DNA of 64,000 nt. Source: Catajapyx aquilonaris (taxonomy: Eukaryota). Shown here in pieces: positions 9,441 through 17,553 of the stretch. The stretch covers positions 1 through 64,000 of the forward strand of contig KZ538595.1 of NCBI GenBank assembly GCA_000934665.2, given 5' to 3'. Positions within the stretch are counted from its first letter, which is position 1, and each line of letters opens with the position of its first letter. Both the position numbers and the translations under genes were made by a program. Below the pieces are notes generated by a model. That model was not told the origin of the DNA and did no database searches. It saw only the letters and a list, made by a program, of their open reading frames with translations.

Positions 9441-9679
9441 AGGCCGCTTCACAAACTCGGCGTTGCGAAAGCGTGGCGTGTGGGCCTTACGCTCATCGCA
9501 CGCAGAAAGTCCACCCGATTGGACGCCAGCGCAACGCCCGCGCTCGGTCATCGCACGCAGCATTTGTGAATAGCCCTTCGCAAATTTTCCGCTCTCCGTA
9601 CGCCCCGCTCGCGCAAATCCGGGTTTGTAAAACGGGCATTTCGCCCCGCTTTCGCAACGCCGAGTTTGTGAAGCGGCCT
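9441..9679. mobile_element. 239-bp MITE, PIF/Harbinger (Tourist)-like
   Basis: Perfect 33-bp terminal inverted repeats AGGCCGCTTCACAAACTCGGCGTTGCGAAAGCG (9441-9473 and 9647-9679) flanked by TAA target duplications (9438-9440, 9680-9682). Confidence 0.85.
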
Positions 9680-9741
9680 TAAGCTGCTATTGGGAGACGG
9701 GGGGCAGCTGCTGTGCGATGTCTGGCCCTGGCGAATCCAAG

Positions 9742-12300
9742 ATGGCGTCCTCCGTGGTCCGGCTGAGAGGCGTGGTGTCCGTCCGTGGTGTCCGTCCGGG
9801 GCTCCTGGCCCTGTCCAGGAGATGGACGGCCAACCACGGGAGGTTCAGGGAGGCCAAGGAACCGGAGGAAATGCAAGCCACCTTCTCCAATGGGTACACG
9901 ATCCACTGGCTGGTCGTACCGTATTTAATTAATTTGAAATTTAATTGCAGGCGTTCAATGAGACTGAGCACCGGATGGCTGGCACGGTTTGCAGATGGAT
10001 CCGCGCTGGCCCAGCTGGGAGACACCACGGTGATGGCCACTGCGGTTGGGAAGACCCTCGCTGGGTCGCCTGGGTCGGGGGTGCCGCTGGTGGTGGACTA
10101 CAGGCAGGGGGCCTCCTCCGTCGGACGGATACCAGCCACCTTCAGGAGGAGGGAGACCGGGCCCTCCGAGAGGGAGGTGCTGGCTGGGAGGGCAGTCGAC
10201 AGGTGCGTCCGCCCGCTCTTTCCGACACTAGCGCAGGCCACCGACACGCAGGTGATCGCAAGCGTGCTGGCAGCGGACGACCTGCACGACCCTGTAGTGC
10301 TGGCCATCAACTCCGCCTCAGCCGCCCTTGCAATATCCGACATACCCTGGGACGGACCGGTAAGTCGGCCCTTTCGGTTTATGTCGCATCGAATGATAAG
10401 TCCGCTTTCAGGTCGGTGCGGTCCGCATCGCGCGGATATCCGGAGGCGAGCTGATAGTGTGTCCGACGCGACGGGAGCGCCAGGAGTCGACATTGGACAT
10501 GCTGGTGTGTGCGTGCGATCAAAACCTGATTCTGATGGTGGAAGCGGGCTGCCAGGATGTGCTGCAGCAGGACTTCATGCGTGCCCTCAAGGTTGGGGTG
10601 CAGGAGTGCCAGCATGTCGTCAGGGCTGTGCAGGGATTGCAGAGGAAGGTCAGCGTTTCATTCGCGTTGATTGTCACTGACGGAGCATTAACATCCGGAT
10701 TAATATTCTAGGTTGGGAAGGAAAAGAGGGACATTTCGCATGTTCAGCCGTCTGGCGGATCGGTGGCGGAAGCGGTTAAGACTCTGAGTGAGGCAAGGTT
10801 GAGAGAGATTTTTAAGGATGTGTCGCACGACAAGAAGTCCAGGGACGATGCGGTGGCTGCCTTGAGATCCTCGGTAATGGAGCAGCTGAAGGCGGAAGCA
10901 CCTGAAGGCTCAAAGGATGCAGCGGTGTCTGAAGCGTTTGGGGCTGTCTCCAGGGAAGTCTTCCGGAGCATGGTGCTTGAGACTGGTGGGGTCCGTTGCG
11001 ATGGGCGGACCCCAGGTGACCTGAGGCCAATCACATGCCAGGTGGGCATGTTCCCGCCTCTCCCAGGGTCCGCCGTTTTCCAGCGGGGACAAACGCAGGT
11101 GGTATGCAGCGTAGCGTTTGACTCTCCAGACTCGGCCGTGAGAGCTGACCCTGTAGGAGGGTCAAACGAGAAGAACTTCTTCCTGCACTACGAGTTCCCC
11201 CCATTTGCCACCAATGAAATGGGGAGGGTTGGAGGATGGGGAGGCAGGAGAGAGATTGGCCACGGAGCCCTGGCGGAGAAGGCGCTGGCCCCACTGGTGC
11301 CTTCCGACCTTCCCTTCACCACCAGGGTGTGGGCGCAGGTCATGGAGTCAAACGGATCGTCCTCGATGGCCACCGTGTGTGCAGCCTCCTTGGCTATGAT
11401 GGACGCGGGCCTTGCTTTGCCCAGTCCGGTAGGAGGAGTGGCCGTTGGGCTGGTGGCAAAATATGAGCTCACTCCGCACGGCCAGCTGGACACAAAGCAT
11501 ATGCAGGACTATCAACTGTTGGCAGACATACTGGTGAGTTTCCACTGTCGTTCCGCTAGCAGGTGACTAATGTGACTTTCCAGGGCATTGAAGACTACAT
11601 GGGCGACATGGACATGAAGCTGGCTGGCACCAAGAAGGGCATCACGGCCATGCAGCTGGACGTCAAAGTGCCAGGACTTCCTTTGAAAGTGATCATGGAG
11701 GGGATTCAGCTAGGGTCGGATGCCAAATCGAAAGTGCTGCAGGTCATGTCCACAACCATGGACCACCCGAGAGACAGTCACGAGAAATGGCCAGTGTCGG
11801 ACACTCTTCAGGTGTCGCCGCACCAAAGGGGAGCCCTGGTTGGATTCGGAGGATGCAACCTCCGCCGCTTAAAGGCTGCGACTGGGGTCCAGTTAGAGGC
11901 AAATGAAGACGGATCCTTTGCGGTCTTTGCCCCAAATTCGGCAGCCTGGGAGGAAGCCAAGGACCATGTTAAGCGCATCCTAGAGAAGCAGGCGAAGAGA
12001 ACACCGGAGCTTGAGTTTGGTGCCGTGTACTCCGCGCGCATTGTTGAACTGAAGGAGACTGGGTGCCTGGTCAGCCTCCACCCGGACATGCAGCCAGCAC
12101 TGCTGCACAACTCGCAGCTGGACCAGCGGCCAGTGCACCACCCTTCCGCTCTGGGTCTCGAGGTGGGACAGACCATCCTCGTCAAGTACTTTGGACGAGA
12201 CCCAGTGTCTGGAAGGGTGCGGATTTCCAGGAAGGTGCTGCAGGGAGGATCGGGTGGGCCTGTGAAGGATTTCCATCCCAACGAGTCGACTGGCCAATAA
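9742..12300 (+). CDS. PNPT1: Polyribonucleotide nucleotidyltransferase 1, mitochondrial (PNPase)
   Basis: Motifs LARFADGSA, PLVVDYRQ, DRCVRPLFP, RCDGR, GSAVFQRGQTQV, FFLHYEFPPFA, RREIGHGALAEKAL, ESNGSSSMA, DILGIEDYMGDMDMK, then KH and S1 (LLHNSQLD..KYFGRDP) domains. Four short introns. Arg-rich N-terminus fits a mitochondrial presequence. Alternative in-frame ATG at 9718. Confidence 0.96.
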
Positions 12301-12533: not shown

Positions 12534-14189
12534 TCACTTCGGAGGCAGAACAACAAGGGTCATGCCAACTTGGAGCATGTTCTGGCACGTTTCCAATGCC
12601 GACCTGATGGCTGCCATCCTGACAACCTTCAGGTCGATTAAAGTGTCCGCACCTAAATTAATCCACGGGGCTTCCCGGACGTCTCCTGAGACGACACCCA
12701 TTATGCCGTCCGGGATGACCTCTACCCACCCTTCAACTTGATCCCTCCTGACCAGTGAGCAGCAGCAGTGACGGTCACTTCTGTCCCTCCAGAGGTGATG
12801 GTAAGCGCTATCCAACAGCACGACACCACATCTTGATCCTGCGATGCATCTAGCAACATGCAACAAGCTGCCTGACAGCCAACCGCAGCTTTCCAGGATG
12901 TCGGATCTCCTCATGCCGCCTGCAGGATGCCCTAGCGTACCCTGAAACATCAAGATGAAGTCGCAGCTTACAAGCAACTGAAGTATTACGCCTCACCTTC
13001 TGCTGGATCCGCATAGCCATTGTGGCCTCAAAGCATCCTCCACCTGGCAAAACATGTGGATCGTGCAGCATGATGCGCAGAGAGTCGAGAACCTGCTGGC
13101 AAACCACCTGGAACATTGTCGCAATAATCGCAGATGCTGATTTTACGACTTCAATGAGACAATCACCTTCAATTCTTCAGCGCCTTCTGGAGTCCATGCT
13201 GTTACTCTGACTGTGATGATGTTTCCCTCCGAGTTGGCCAACAGCAAGAAGGTTCGGTCGTTCCTTCTGACCACACTCACTGATGACAACCTTCCACATC
13301 CGTCTGCTCCGGTTCCAGTCAGCCGTGCAAAATGTCCGGCTTGATCTGTCCCAAGTCGCTCCAGCACAACGATGCCTCTCCGTCGCATCTTGTCTCTAAA
13401 TCCTGGCGAAACCACTTTTTGACATGCGACCAGTTTTGTCTCCAGCGTGACCAGTTCAGCATCACCACTGTTGAGCCCACATGTAAAAAGCATTGTTGAT
13501 GTCTCGCCAAGTTCACACATTGCGCCCAACTCTTCCACTGCAGGTTCAGGGTACAATATGCCTTCAAACAGCTCAGATTTTCCATCGCCCGTGTGGGACA
13601 CGAGGATAACTTCTCCTTGAGTGTGCTGGTTGTCCGGAATTCGCTGCAGGAAGGCTTTCAGTAATGTAATTGCGACCAGGTGCTGGTCACAGTTCAGTCG
13701 CACAAGAGGCTTGGAGCGGATTATGGTCCGCACTACTGCTAACATGTGTGGCGCTTCCCAGTCGGTCCTGCCCGCATCCAATTCTATTTCGTGGAGTAGC
13801 TGACATGCCGCAGCCAGCGCATCTCTCTTCATCACTTGGTTGATGGACGACCGAAGCACATTCGCCAGCAGAGTCGTGGTCAGAGTCGCCACGTACAAAC
13901 CCCCGTCGCCGTACTCCCGTAGCTGTCCTTCAGCCGTAGCGCTCATCATCTCAACCAGCGGGTTGCCCACCTTGAAGTTGGGCGCGATCCGTTTGAAGGA
14001 AGACGTCACAATGTCGTCGGAAGGGAGGGAGATCAGCTTGAGCCCTGCGTTTGCGCCCAGGCAGGACTCCCACATGCGCTGGGCCATCTTCAACTGGTTC
14101 GCAAACTGGCTGCCATTCAACGGCTGAGTAACGACCCGCGTTCCTTGCTGCACGCCCAGGCGCAACGACACGCTCCTCTTACCAGCCAT
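12534..14189 (-). CDS. MKKS: McKusick-Kaufman/Bardet-Biedl syndrome chaperonin-like protein (BBS6)
   Basis: Predicted exons 14189-13167, 13107-12997, 12941-12534 (~513 aa). Motifs SCLGANAGLKL, YGDGGLY, IIRSKP, VACQKVV..IVVLERLG, VLPGGGCFE, HLW..CCCSL and C-terminal A.ETCQNML resemble MKKS rather than canonical CCT subunits (no GDGTT). Confidence 0.85.
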
Positions 14190-14280
14190 GCCTGCAACAA
14201 CTCGCATTCAAACCATAAAAAAGGGAACAATCAAAATAATCTTATTGATTCGCTGGCGTATGTACAACTACGGAGCTCTC

Positions 14281-14568
14281 TCATTCCCTCCGATGCGGTC
14301 GTCCGGTGATCTTCTCCTCAAGGAAGTACAGTCCCTGGAACAATTAAACGTGGGATTTAAACACAATGAATTGGTCGTCCCTGATCATACGTACCTGGAT
14401 GATTGGGATTTGCTTCTTCTGTCCCTCGGGCACGAACTCCTTGACGTCCTGCAGCTTGTACCACCCCCAGTGCATCGCGACCAGGGCTGGAACCATCACC
14501 AAGACGACCACGTTCCGCCTCCAGAACCTGCCCCATTTGCCCAGCTCAGGGGGGTCCTCACCAGGCAT
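14281..14568 (-). CDS. 75-aa single-TM microprotein resembling the MKKS uORF product uMKKS1
   Basis: Exon 14568-14395 (MPGEDPPELGKWGRFWRRNVVVLVMVPALVAMHWGWYKLQDVKEFVPEGQKKQIPIIQ), 60-nt GT-AG intron, exon 14334-14281 (GLYFLEEKITGRPHRRE*). Core resembles human uMKKS1 as recalled (LWRDYKVLVVMVPLVGLIHLGWYRI). Confidence 0.75.
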
Positions 14569-14800
14569 TTTTTGTCGGGGGCAACGAACGCGAATCGAAC
14601 ACTAATCGAGCAGTGAATCGAACGTCTCATGAGAAAGAAAGAAAAGAAAAAAAGCATGCAAATGAACACGTGACATGTTGTGAACGTTAATTGGAATTAA
14701 TCTGCACCTACAATTTTTTTTAATTAGTTAAATTAAGTGTTAAAATTGTGGTTAAAATTTGAGATATTTAAAATGTTCGAATTGAACGATTCCGATTGTT

Positions 14801-14840
14801 AGTGTCGATAGTATCATGTAAGTGTCGATAGTATCATGTA
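14801..14840. repeat. Perfect 20-bp tandem duplication in the divergent intergenic region between microprotein/MKKS and the FASTK gene
   Basis: AGTGTCGATAGTATCATGTA x2. Confidence 0.85.
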
Positions 14841-15107
14841 AGCGGGACTATTTGTTCGATAGTGTCGCCACGTGTTTTTGGCACAAGTTGACCTTTTTTT
14901 TCTGCAAATTTTAGCGACAAATTTGGCGACAAGGTGCGAACGGACAAGCTGACCGGATGAGGACAGGGCCTGGCCAGCTTTAAGAACTAGTTGCAGGTAA
15001 TTATGTTCACCACCGGTCAGCACGTACTGAGCTGCATTAATGCCAAAAATATTAGCAGTAATGTCCACAATATATATTACATATTGGGAATATTAATAAT
15101 TGCAGGG

Positions 15108-17553
15108 ATGCTAAGACATGTTACGTGTACATGCCTGCGACTGCGATCGTTGGGGCAGTCGTACACTAGGAAGACGGCGCAGCTGGTGTTGTCAAGCTGC
15201 CGTTTCCAGTGCGGCCTGGTTGGTCCCCGTGGTTCGGCGAAGGAGGCGGAGGACCAGGACGTGCTGTTGAATCAGCTGAAGTATGCGAACTCGCCGGAGC
15301 AGCTGATTGGAGTCGTGGACTCCCATCACCAGGTCATGAACCTGAGGCATCTGAAGGAGTGCCTCACGTCTCTGTACCACATCCAGAGGAAGGTCGGGGC
15401 CAAGTGGGAAGGAAAGCGGGAGTACAGAAGCACCGGGATTAAGGACATACCGGGGTTCAAAGAGATGTGCGCAATGCTGCAGAAGAAAGCCAGGCTGCTG
15501 GAGCCTAGCGACCTCCTTAATTCGCTCAAGGTAAACACCGCAATTTCCCAGTGTCTGTACTAGCCAAATTGCTGTGTACTCATGTTCTAGACGGTACTGC
15601 TGTGCGGCGTGGAAGCAAATTCATCGCTGGTTCAGACGTTGCTCCAGCTTATCCGCCACCATGTCAACCAGCTGACGGTCCAGGAAGTGGAGTACCTTCA
15701 CTTCTTGCTGAGCAGGATTGCGACGAGGGGAGGCCCCCTGAGGGAGGCTCTCCTGATGGCCCTTCCCGTGGTGTTTGAGGCACAGCTTGCGGCGCAGCTG
15801 CCAGACGCTTCCACCTCTTCTCTTCCCTCTCTGCTCACCTTTGCCTCCCAGACCTGCCCAAAGGTCGTGCCTCAGATTTTGGAGGAGGCTGGAAGCCGGG
15901 GGCTGGATATGGACCATGAGCAGGCTCTGAGCTGTCTCTGGAGCCTGATCACTCTCAAGGGTGATCACAACAAAGGTCAGTTGCTCTGGAGCCATCCCCA
16001 TTTCTGTGAATCTAATTTTTCATTTTTTTTGGCAGGTTCTGACAAACTGATTGGAATCTGCATGGAGAAAGTATGTTCGTCTATACACCTGCTGAGTGAT
16101 CAGCGGGCAGGGGCCCTTTTGAACGCATTGTCTCGCAGGATTTCATTTGGTGATTCCCCATTATACTACGAGCCTCTTTTCGAATCTGCGGGTGACGTGG
16201 CTGTGTCAAGTCGATGGGGTGTGGGACCTGCCTCACGAATGCTGAGGTATCTGACCAAAGCCGGGCATGTCCACGAGGCACTGACTGATTACCTCGCAAC
16301 AGCCATTCTGGAAAATGCAGAAAGTGAAAGCGAAGATAGTTTATCGTGGGGGCTGTGTTCTTTGGTTTCTGGCTGCGCCTTAGACCTGCACACACCGCCA
16401 CGGTGGGACGAAGTGAGGCAGTTAATTTTAAATCAGACATTTTGGAGGAAGGTAAGGAAAATTATGGCATTAATTGAATTAAAATTACTCATAAAATTAT
16501 GATTTCCAGGATTTTGCAGAACTACCACTGATCAGGTTTGCATTGGATTTGCTTACGCTTGACATTGTCGTCAAGGATTTGCTAGATGTTGTGCTATCAC
16601 CGGAATACCTCGGAAGAACGTTTGGTAGTGGTAAGCACACAGTATCGTCTTAATTTGGGTCACATTTAAAAAAAAAAAATGATGTAAAAGGCCTTTTATG
16701 TGTAGCTGAAGAGGTCACCTAATCTCATTGATAATAGCGTAATCTAGCCAAAATGCGATCAGGTTGATGAAGTCTTCTTTCATAAACTTTTTTTTTTTTT
16801 GGTGGCGTCCTCAATCCAGGCGTGAGGATGTTCCACTACTTCCAGCTGCTCCGCATCCACCAGACCCTGTCGAGCACTCACAAGGCTGGGTATGATGGTC
16901 CTCTCCTCCCGGACCCCTACTTGTCCACTGCGCTCAGGGTACACGGAGAGGAAGAAGGACAAGAGTTCCCTCTTGAGGGTGCTCTCCACGTTGGGCTTGG
17001 AGGTGGAAACTACGTCAAGTCTAGAGTTTTCACCAAAATGGGACACTTCCTGGGTAGGTTTTCGCAGAGCTGGGTGTCGTCTACATGTGTATGCACTTTT
17101 CAGACCTTCATTGTCGTTTCAGACCATCTGGTGGTAATGCGCAAGGGAGGCTACCCCATTGCAATCAACACTGACGCATCATCTTCTCCATCTCACGGGA
17201 AGGAGTACGTGGAGGACCTGCAGCTGCCAGGCGACAGTGTCACGTAAGTCCCTCTCAGGTTGTTGTGTTGAGTACTTGAACAATAATTCCTCACTTTCCC
17301 GTGCAGGTTGGCTGTCAAGCTGCTGAAGCCCAGTGGATATCCGTTGAATAGCAACAGTCCGAAAGGGATGCTACTCCTGGAGATGCGGGATCTAGAAGCC
17401 ATTGGTTTTGCACCTGTTCTAATATCACAGGCTGCTTGGGAGGCATTGTTGCACCACGAAAGAGTTCCCTATCTGATGGCCAAGCTAAGAGACAGGTGCA
17501 CGGAAGCAGAACAACAATCGCAGGGACAAGCAGGCTCGCTGCTCTATCCTTGA
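15108..17553 (+). CDS. FAST kinase domain-containing mitochondrial RNA-binding protein (FASTKD1-like)
   Basis: Arg-rich presequence-like N-terminus, helical leucine-rich middle, C-terminal RAP-like region (DHLVVMRKGGYP..KGMLLLEMRDLEAIGFAPVLISQAAWEAL..RVPYL). Multiple short introns and a likely 5'UTR intron ending 2 nt before the ATG. Confidence 0.7.

Follow-up and report, generated by a model that had tools for sequence, protein, structure and literature searches.

A probable invertebrate orthologue of human uMKKS1 directly upstream of an MKKS-like chaperonin gene in Catajapyx aquilonaris

The closest described counterpart of the locus considered here is the 5' untranslated region (UTR) of human MKKS, from which the small proteins uMKKS1 (63 amino acids [aa]; UniProt Q9HB66) and uMKKS2 are translated, both of which have been found in mitochondrial membrane fractions (PMC11837024). 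Translation of MKKS is repressed by the two upstream open reading frames (uORFs), and mRNA abundance is influenced by polyadenylation sites located in the 5' UTR (PMC11837024). Reviews credit the repression of human MKKS by its uORFs to Akimoto et al. (2013), and mitochondrial staining of human uMKKS has been reported (PMC10908861). Here we describe a locus in a 64,000-nucleotide (nt) stretch of the Catajapyx aquilonaris genome (assembly GCA_000934665.2, contig KZ538595.1, positions 1 to 64,000; hereafter the window), in which a spliced ORF for a 75-aa microprotein is followed on the same strand by a chaperonin-like gene. Our results indicate that the microprotein gene is very probably the invertebrate orthologue of human uMKKS1, and that it is followed head-to-tail, after 91 nt, by an MKKS-like, BBS6-type gene (BBS, Bardet-Biedl syndrome).

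The human microprotein is also known as uMKKS, MKKS-uORF-MP, and MKKS3, as listed in a 2026 paper, and GENCODE lists the human uMKKS ORF as a separate gene (PMC6886504). As to its age, PMC11837024 calls uMKKS1 conserved across mammals, a conserved uORF of MKKS is listed in PMC7530721, and a 2025 preprint describes uMKKS1 as having no significant similarity to known proteins and a possible de novo origin. In the available parts of the literature on uMKKS and the MKKS uORFs, we found no statement concerning an invertebrate uMKKS1; PMC7530721 may show a wider taxonomic range. Reviews disagree as to whether BBS6, BBS10, and BBS12 exist outside the vertebrates. The general scheme is shared by the uORFs of MIEF1 and SLC35A4, which also encode stable mitochondrial membrane microproteins while damping the main ORF. 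The sequences of these two are unrelated to the microprotein described here, and conservation of the respective pairs between invertebrates and vertebrates is not reported in the sources consulted.

The microprotein ORF lies on the minus strand, extending over two exons from ATG 14568 to TGA 14283-14281. A previous sequence-only reading of the window had placed a spliced 75-aa ORF with this stop codon 91 nt before ATG 14189 on the same strand, and all of these coordinates proved to be correct. RNA evidence was taken from the contigs of one public run (X1), the kind of which is not on record; as introns bounded by GT..AG on the coding strand are missing from the contigs, the latter derive from RNA. 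A 318-nt contig spans 14628-14394 and 14333-14251, omitting exactly the predicted microprotein intron, with a mean word depth of 59.6. Contigs confirm four introns across the locus and leave 14023-14250 and 12748-12899 without cover. The microprotein gene is real, spliced, and expressed. A chance ORF was considered and rejected on account of the spliced contig and the conserved family described below. The stretch directly 5' of the UTR that precedes the microprotein ORF (14629-14660) is of low complexity and rich in pyrimidines, with T/C repeats as read on the minus strand; it was skipped in contig mapping, so that the 5' end of the mRNA is known as a minimum extent.

In terms of hydropathy, the best 19-residue window of the microprotein corresponds to residues 19-37 (Kyte-Doolittle mean, 1.49). 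AlphaFold2, supplied with the family alignment, returned one helix at residues 9-39, with a mean predicted local distance difference test (pLDDT) score of 83.4. The protein is thus predicted to be a single-pass membrane protein, in agreement with the single transmembrane segment proposed previously.

The microprotein belongs to an unnamed family that is widespread among invertebrates. When exon 1 was used in a HMMER scan of 1.84 billion representative proteins, 86 proteins were found at E<=1e-3, three of them at E<=1e-10 (best, 3.9e-11). Almost all are 53-111 aa long, and their identity to exon 1 ranges from 26 to 58%. An alignment of the microprotein with 84 of the 86 hits, excluding the two longest (P0048 and P0069), displays five near-invariant columns, P27, H33, W36, Q40, and P55. 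A profile search of a larger named database identified 30 proteins at E<=0.01 (389 candidates), among which are seven named species: the insects Chrysoperla carnea, Teleopsis dalmanni, Musca vetustissima, and Rhagoletis zephyria ("uncharacterized protein LOC...") and Sarcophaga bullata ("hypothetical protein"), together with the springtail Orchesella cincta and the snail Nucella lapillus (both "hypothetical protein"). Of 108 family sequences, 97 contain the motif P-x5-H-x2-W.

The exon structure is also a property of the family. At 22 residues after the W of the motif, which is the intron point in the microprotein, 42 of 96 relatives carry V (in 18 cases as V-S), the residue that results when an unspliced GT donor is read through. 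Another 10 of the 96 carry G at this point and then an exon-2-like pattern, as expected of spliced sequences; the pattern G-x-x-x-L-x-E-K is common to the microprotein and the spliced relatives P0009 and P0022. The V/G signature in 52 of 96 relatives and the common exon-2 pattern mark both the position of the intron and exon 2 as features of the family. The microprotein thus resembles this unnamed invertebrate family over its full length, in the position of the intron, in the pattern of the second exon, and in the helix. Many family entries in the databases look mispredicted, reading through the intron and continuing into unrelated tails, and the frequency of such read-through indicates that public annotation of the family is poor. 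The expectation that gene predictors would miss the microprotein was therefore correct in part: seven named species do carry an annotated uncharacterized or hypothetical protein, but many of the entries run through the intron.

Other searches gave no relative. Pfam has no family matching the microprotein, a search of the PDB with the family profile gave no significant match (best, butyrophilin at E=1.3), a word-index protein search with exon 1 returned no candidate, and no relative was found in scans of metagenomes and of prokaryote genome contigs. On inspection, the long family hits (P0048, P0069, P0103, P0104, and P0108) contained no chaperonin sequence, although no search aimed at longer proteins was made.

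We compared the family with human uMKKS1, the coding sequence of which is given in Supplementary file 1 of PMC10908861 and, translated by eye, corresponds to 63 aa. The core string of human uMKKS1 that had been given in the sequence-only reading agrees with this printed sequence. Without gaps, human residues 1-36 align on microprotein residues 10-45 with 12 of 36 residues identical (W, R, two V, M, V, P, H, G, W, Y, and F). The two proteins share W-R, V-M-V-P, H-x-G-W-Y six residues further on, and F nine residues after W. Of the five near-invariant positions of the family, the human protein retains four: P, H, and W, spaced exactly as in the family, and the second P, displaced by one residue; the fifth, Q40, is K in human uMKKS1. 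On a profile hidden Markov model built from the family alignment without the human sequence, human uMKKS1 scored 47.9 bits over profile positions 10-45, a value obtained by summing the emission log-odds by hand and not by program scoring. Aliphatic residues contribute less to the score than W, M, P, H, G, W, and F, which make up most of it. True family members score 55-117 bits on the same scale. As null sets, we determined the best ungapped segment score in 20,000 trials each: the maximum was 23.5 bits for random 63-mers, 28.5 bits for shuffled family members, and 31.7 bits for members shuffled separately within the N-flank, the hydrophobic block, and the C-part, where 0 of 20,000 reached 40. 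The similarity to uMKKS1 in WR, VMVP, and H.GWY, noted previously by eye, is thus well above the null maxima of 23.5-31.7 bits when judged by this hand-summed profile score.

The two proteins are also alike in being small and hydrophobic with a single helix and in preceding an MKKS-type gene on the same strand. In both cases a short transcript of its own is possible, in human through alternative polyadenylation sites, and here with a contig that ends 30 nt past the stop codon. They differ in length (75 aa versus 63 aa), and their C-terminal halves can barely be aligned. The microprotein ORF is interrupted by the family-wide intron. For human uMKKS1, presence on one mRNA with the main ORF, repression of the latter, and a mitochondrial location have been demonstrated; for the locus described here, they are predictions. 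As leads only, the protein Atlas neighbours of the microprotein are a mainly chordate cluster (0.91, 170 shared features) and arthropod clusters (0.92 and 0.91), and look-alikes at 0.84-0.86 comprise COX6C, UQCC5, MITRAC7/Phoenixin, an NADH_oxidored cluster (70% of members), and ATP synthase J, all small inner-membrane proteins. Taken together, the profile comparison strongly argues that the microprotein is homologous to human uMKKS1, a relationship that we regard as highly likely.

The gene downstream of the microprotein encodes a protein of 513 aa. ATG 14189 opens an exon of 348 aa that matches Pfam Cpn60_TCP1 (PF00118) at 2e-17 with 63.5 bits (cut-off, 34.3), and contig joints define introns at 13166-13108 and 12996-12942. 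No PDB chain matches the 348-aa exon at E<=0.01, and the chaperonin-like protein is therefore far from every CCT subunit and from the thermosome; a CCT subunit as the neighbouring gene was rejected on the same grounds. The search of the named database covered 6,235 candidates of 191-609 aa, a length range that would miss relatives of the size of BBS10, and gave three relatives at E<=1e-3. They are a cockroach hypothetical protein (561 aa; E=1.2e-24), an unnamed protein (528 aa; E=1.8e-11), and "molecular chaperone MKKS-like" from the snail Babylonia areolata (590 aa; E=1.1e-7). The 513-aa protein is colinear with all three (P0110, P0111, and P0112), with identities of 23-31%, and the microprotein is not fused to the N terminus of any of them. 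Together with the Atlas clusters of the microprotein, these relatives are suggestive of an arthropod as the source of the window.

The canonical form of the chaperonin nucleotide motif is G-D-G-T-T. In the 513-aa protein this motif is degenerate (G-D-G-G-L-Y), and it is still more so in P0110, P0111, and P0112. Reviews state that the ATP-hydrolysis motif differs in MKKS and BBS12 and is retained in BBS10; in this respect, the 513-aa protein is like MKKS and BBS12 and unlike BBS10. The protein shares with MKKS/BBS6, BBS10, and BBS12 the Cpn60_TCP1 fold family and an extreme divergence from CCT. Its length is nearer to that of MKKS (556 or 570 aa) than to that of BBS10 (723 aa), and it is shorter than the vertebrate proteins. 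The MKKS-like snail relative is only 23% identical to it. Judged by its sequence, the gene is a BBS-type chaperonin-like gene. Among the BBS chaperonins "MKKS" is the best label for it, with an orthology versus BBS10 or BBS12 that is weak apart from the linkage.

The simplest reading of these results is that the uMKKS1-MKKS linkage is ancient and that the pair was inherited from a common ancestor with vertebrates, which we consider likely. This reading agrees with the earlier claim of a conserved linkage to MKKS insofar as the two genes are adjacent and on the same strand, and insofar as the neighbour is a BBS-type chaperonin with an MKKS-like relative; this neighbour may be MKKS rather than BBS10 or BBS12, and its nearest Atlas cluster is named BBS10.

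The features of the locus are listed in Table 1. The spacer between the two genes contains an acceptor-like sequence, TTGTTGCAG followed by GC, in which the AG occupies 14193-14192, two bases 5' of the chaperonin ATG 14189. The four confirmed acceptors of the locus are TTCCAG (twice), TTTCAG, and TTGCAG, each followed by G; the spacer site matches their form, TT(C/T/G)CAG before G, and is thus a credible acceptor. A two-codon ORF, ATG GTT TGA, is found at 14216 and is directly followed by ATG 14207, which is in frame with the chaperonin ORF six codons before ATG 14189. The chaperonin start codon may be either ATG 14207 or ATG 14189. The chaperonin contig (12505) and the microprotein contig (14251) both end 29-30 nt past the respective stop codons, each immediately before AAT, which could reflect very short 3' UTRs or an assembly effect.

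Table 1. Features of the microprotein-chaperonin locus in the window
Feature	Position	Strand	Details
Intergenic candidate bidirectional promoter	14629-14906	.	<=278 nt between the minus-strand contig (to 14628) and the plus-strand contig (from 14907)
Microprotein 5' UTR	14628-14569	-	Minimum extent (>=60 nt); contig reaches 14628; upstream end clipped by the repeat filter at 14629-14660
Microprotein exon 1	14568-14395	-	Start codon and 58 codons; includes the only helix and the core residues of the family, P27, H33, W36, Q40, P55; translation
Predicted transmembrane segment, microprotein codons 19-37	14514-14458	-	Top Kyte-Doolittle window; within helix at pLDDT >90
Microprotein intron	14394-14335	-	60 nt, phase 0, GT-AG, GTACGT...TTCCAG; contig joint 14333->14394, "skips 60, CT..AC (cut +1)"
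Microprotein exon 2	14334-14281	-	17 codons and TGA (14283-14281); translation
Spacer	14280-14190	-	91 nt; microprotein 3' UTR 14280-14251, AATAAG 14246-14241, T-rich tract, ATG 14216 ORF, ATG 14207, acceptor-like site
MKKS-like (BBS-type) chaperonin-like gene	14189-12534; exons 14189-13167, 13107-12997, 12941-12534 (including stop)	-	513 aa; Pfam Cpn60_TCP1; introns from contig joints

Two other genes flank the pair. A divergent gene at 14907-16502 (plus strand) has a first intron of 109 nt with GT-AG ends, and its two long ORFs gave no Pfam match. Converging on the chaperonin gene is a PNPase-type gene at 9631-12300 (plus strand), in which two RNase_PH domains are combined with a PNPase and a KH domain; about 230 nt separate the stop codons of the two. 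No Rfam family, leader RNAs included, matched anywhere in the window.

How the pair might be expressed can be outlined from the arrangement of the locus. Transcription of the microprotein mRNA would begin at a promoter common with the divergent plus-strand gene, and most transcripts would end soon past the microprotein stop codon. The chaperonin ORF would be reached from the same transcription unit, since the 91-nt spacer has scarcely any room for a promoter of its own. This may occur by read-through of the spacer, generating a bicistronic mRNA, or by splicing of the exon-1 donor (14395/14394) to the acceptor-like site (14192/14191), which would produce an ORF of 58 plus 24 codons that is out of frame with, and overlaps, the chaperonin ATG. 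In either case the microprotein ORF, as a long or overlapping uORF, would keep translation of the chaperonin low, as in human MKKS. By homology, the microprotein would work in the mitochondrial membrane. We give even chances to co-transcription of the two ORFs with processing in cis, and put forward bicistronic expression and translational coupling of the pair, including the selection for such coupling proposed in the sequence-only reading, as hypotheses.

Several observations weigh against an ancient pair of this kind or against its joint expression. With regard to the assignments, the relative with an MKKS-like name matches the chaperonin at only E=1.1e-7 and 23% identity, and the nearest Atlas cluster of the chaperonin exon is "Bardet-Biedl syndrome 10 protein isoform X2" (0.90, 168 shared features), followed by archaeal thermosome fragments (0.89). 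The score of human uMKKS1 comes from a comparison by hand and not by program, and no vertebrate protein is present among the matches of the HMMER scan or the profile search with the microprotein family. The linkage is known from only two lineages, the window and, from the literature, human. Family members are found in four dipteran species (Teleopsis, Musca, Sarcophaga, and Rhagoletis). Diptera are not known to have MKKS; if they lack it, the microprotein can persist as a free-standing gene, independent of the linkage. In a rival explanation there is no conserved unit: the resemblance to uMKKS1 might be a convergence of short hydrophobic peptides, and/or the neighbour might be BBS10, BBS12, or a lineage-specific chaperonin, with the adjacency coincidental. 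The lack of vertebrate sequences among the family matches, the lack of a Pfam family for the microprotein, the BBS10 name of the nearest Atlas cluster, and the statement in the 2025 preprint that uMKKS1 has no significant BLAST similarity to known proteins are all in favour of such an explanation. It has to account, however, for a hand-summed score of 47.9 bits against a maximum of 31.7 in a block-shuffle null that keeps the hydrophobic block and the content of P, H, G, and W, and for the fact that this score is carried by W, M, P, H, G, W, and F and not by aliphatic residues. It also demands that two independent weak resemblances fall on adjacent genes of the same strand in the human order, which should be rare by chance. 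We consider such an explanation very improbable.

With regard to expression, the uncovered region 14023-14250 means that no contig bridges the two ORFs, a gap that is silent on whether they share a transcript. The microprotein contig stops at 14251, 30 nt past the stop codon and 62 nt short of the chaperonin ATG. This end lies five bases before AATAAG, with no poly(A) tail seen on the contig, and AATAAG and the T-rich tract in the spacer are compatible with a microprotein mRNA that has a 3' end of its own. The microprotein contig has a depth of 59.6, and the chaperonin contigs have depths of 6.55 and 8.48; at face value these figures hint that most microprotein transcripts exclude the chaperonin ORF, although depth is a poor measure. 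Moreover, a 75-codon uORF followed by two further ATGs would allow very little downstream initiation, which makes a dedicated chaperonin mRNA plausible. In another rival explanation the two genes would be independent neighbours of conserved synteny, with transcription of the chaperonin gene starting separately, either around the spacer (in it or close by) or within the gene for the microprotein, so that the two ORFs are never together on a mature mRNA and are not coupled. The contig end 30 nt past the stop with AATAAG at 14246 and the T-rich tract beyond it, the ninefold difference in depth (as said, a weak measure), and the strong context of the chaperonin ATG (G at -3 and G at +4) would be consistent with this arrangement, as would the compactness of the genome, where the divergent gene is at most 278 nt away and the PNPase gene about 230 nt from the chaperonin stop. 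On the other hand, the 91 nt would have to accommodate a 3' end signal together with a promoter and a 5' UTR, unless these overlap the upstream gene, the well-formed acceptor-like site two bases 5' of the ATG suggests an upstream exon, and in human the counterpart ORFs do share transcripts. Independence of the two genes appears to us rather unlikely. The layout of AATAAG, T-rich tract, and acceptor resembles the operon spacers of the nematode type, and some crustaceans and other invertebrates trans-splice. A spliced-leader operon could thus be envisaged, in which the primary transcript is cleaved and polyadenylated past the microprotein and a leader is trans-spliced at 14192/14191, giving two monocistronic mRNAs without coupling of the uORF type. 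All three elements are indeed present within the 91 nt, the acceptor being two bases before the ATG. A leader was not seen, however, and there are no loose contig ends, although the contigs stop short of the chaperonin 5' end; no leader RNA of Rfam is found in the window, and the 5' UTR of the microprotein mRNA is genomic over at least 60 nt. We regard this possibility as improbable.

The ancient uMKKS1-MKKS pair thus remains our preferred reading. A stronger version, to which we attach a tentative and clearly minor likelihood, is that uMKKS1 and MKKS have been one expression unit since the ancestor of arthropods and vertebrates, and that uMKKS1, far from being a young or de novo uORF peptide, is a bilaterian-wide microprotein of the inner mitochondrial membrane, whose ORF has gated output of the ciliary BBS chaperonin ever since. 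If the homology and linkage described here are correct, uMKKS1 would date far back in the animals, with relatives in arthropods and molluscs, and its position before an MKKS-type gene would be older than the split between protostomes and vertebrates. It would be among the very few protein-coding uORFs that have stayed with their main ORF over that distance. For the unnamed family of invertebrates, a role in the mitochondrial membrane would be the first clue to function, and limitation of BBS chaperonin output by translation of the microprotein would become testable in invertebrate models. The linkage would also provide independent evidence, from synteny, that the fast-evolving chaperonin-like genes of invertebrates are MKKS orthologues. 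Should the pair prove to be a single ancient expression unit, this would tie the state of the mitochondria to assembly of the BBSome.

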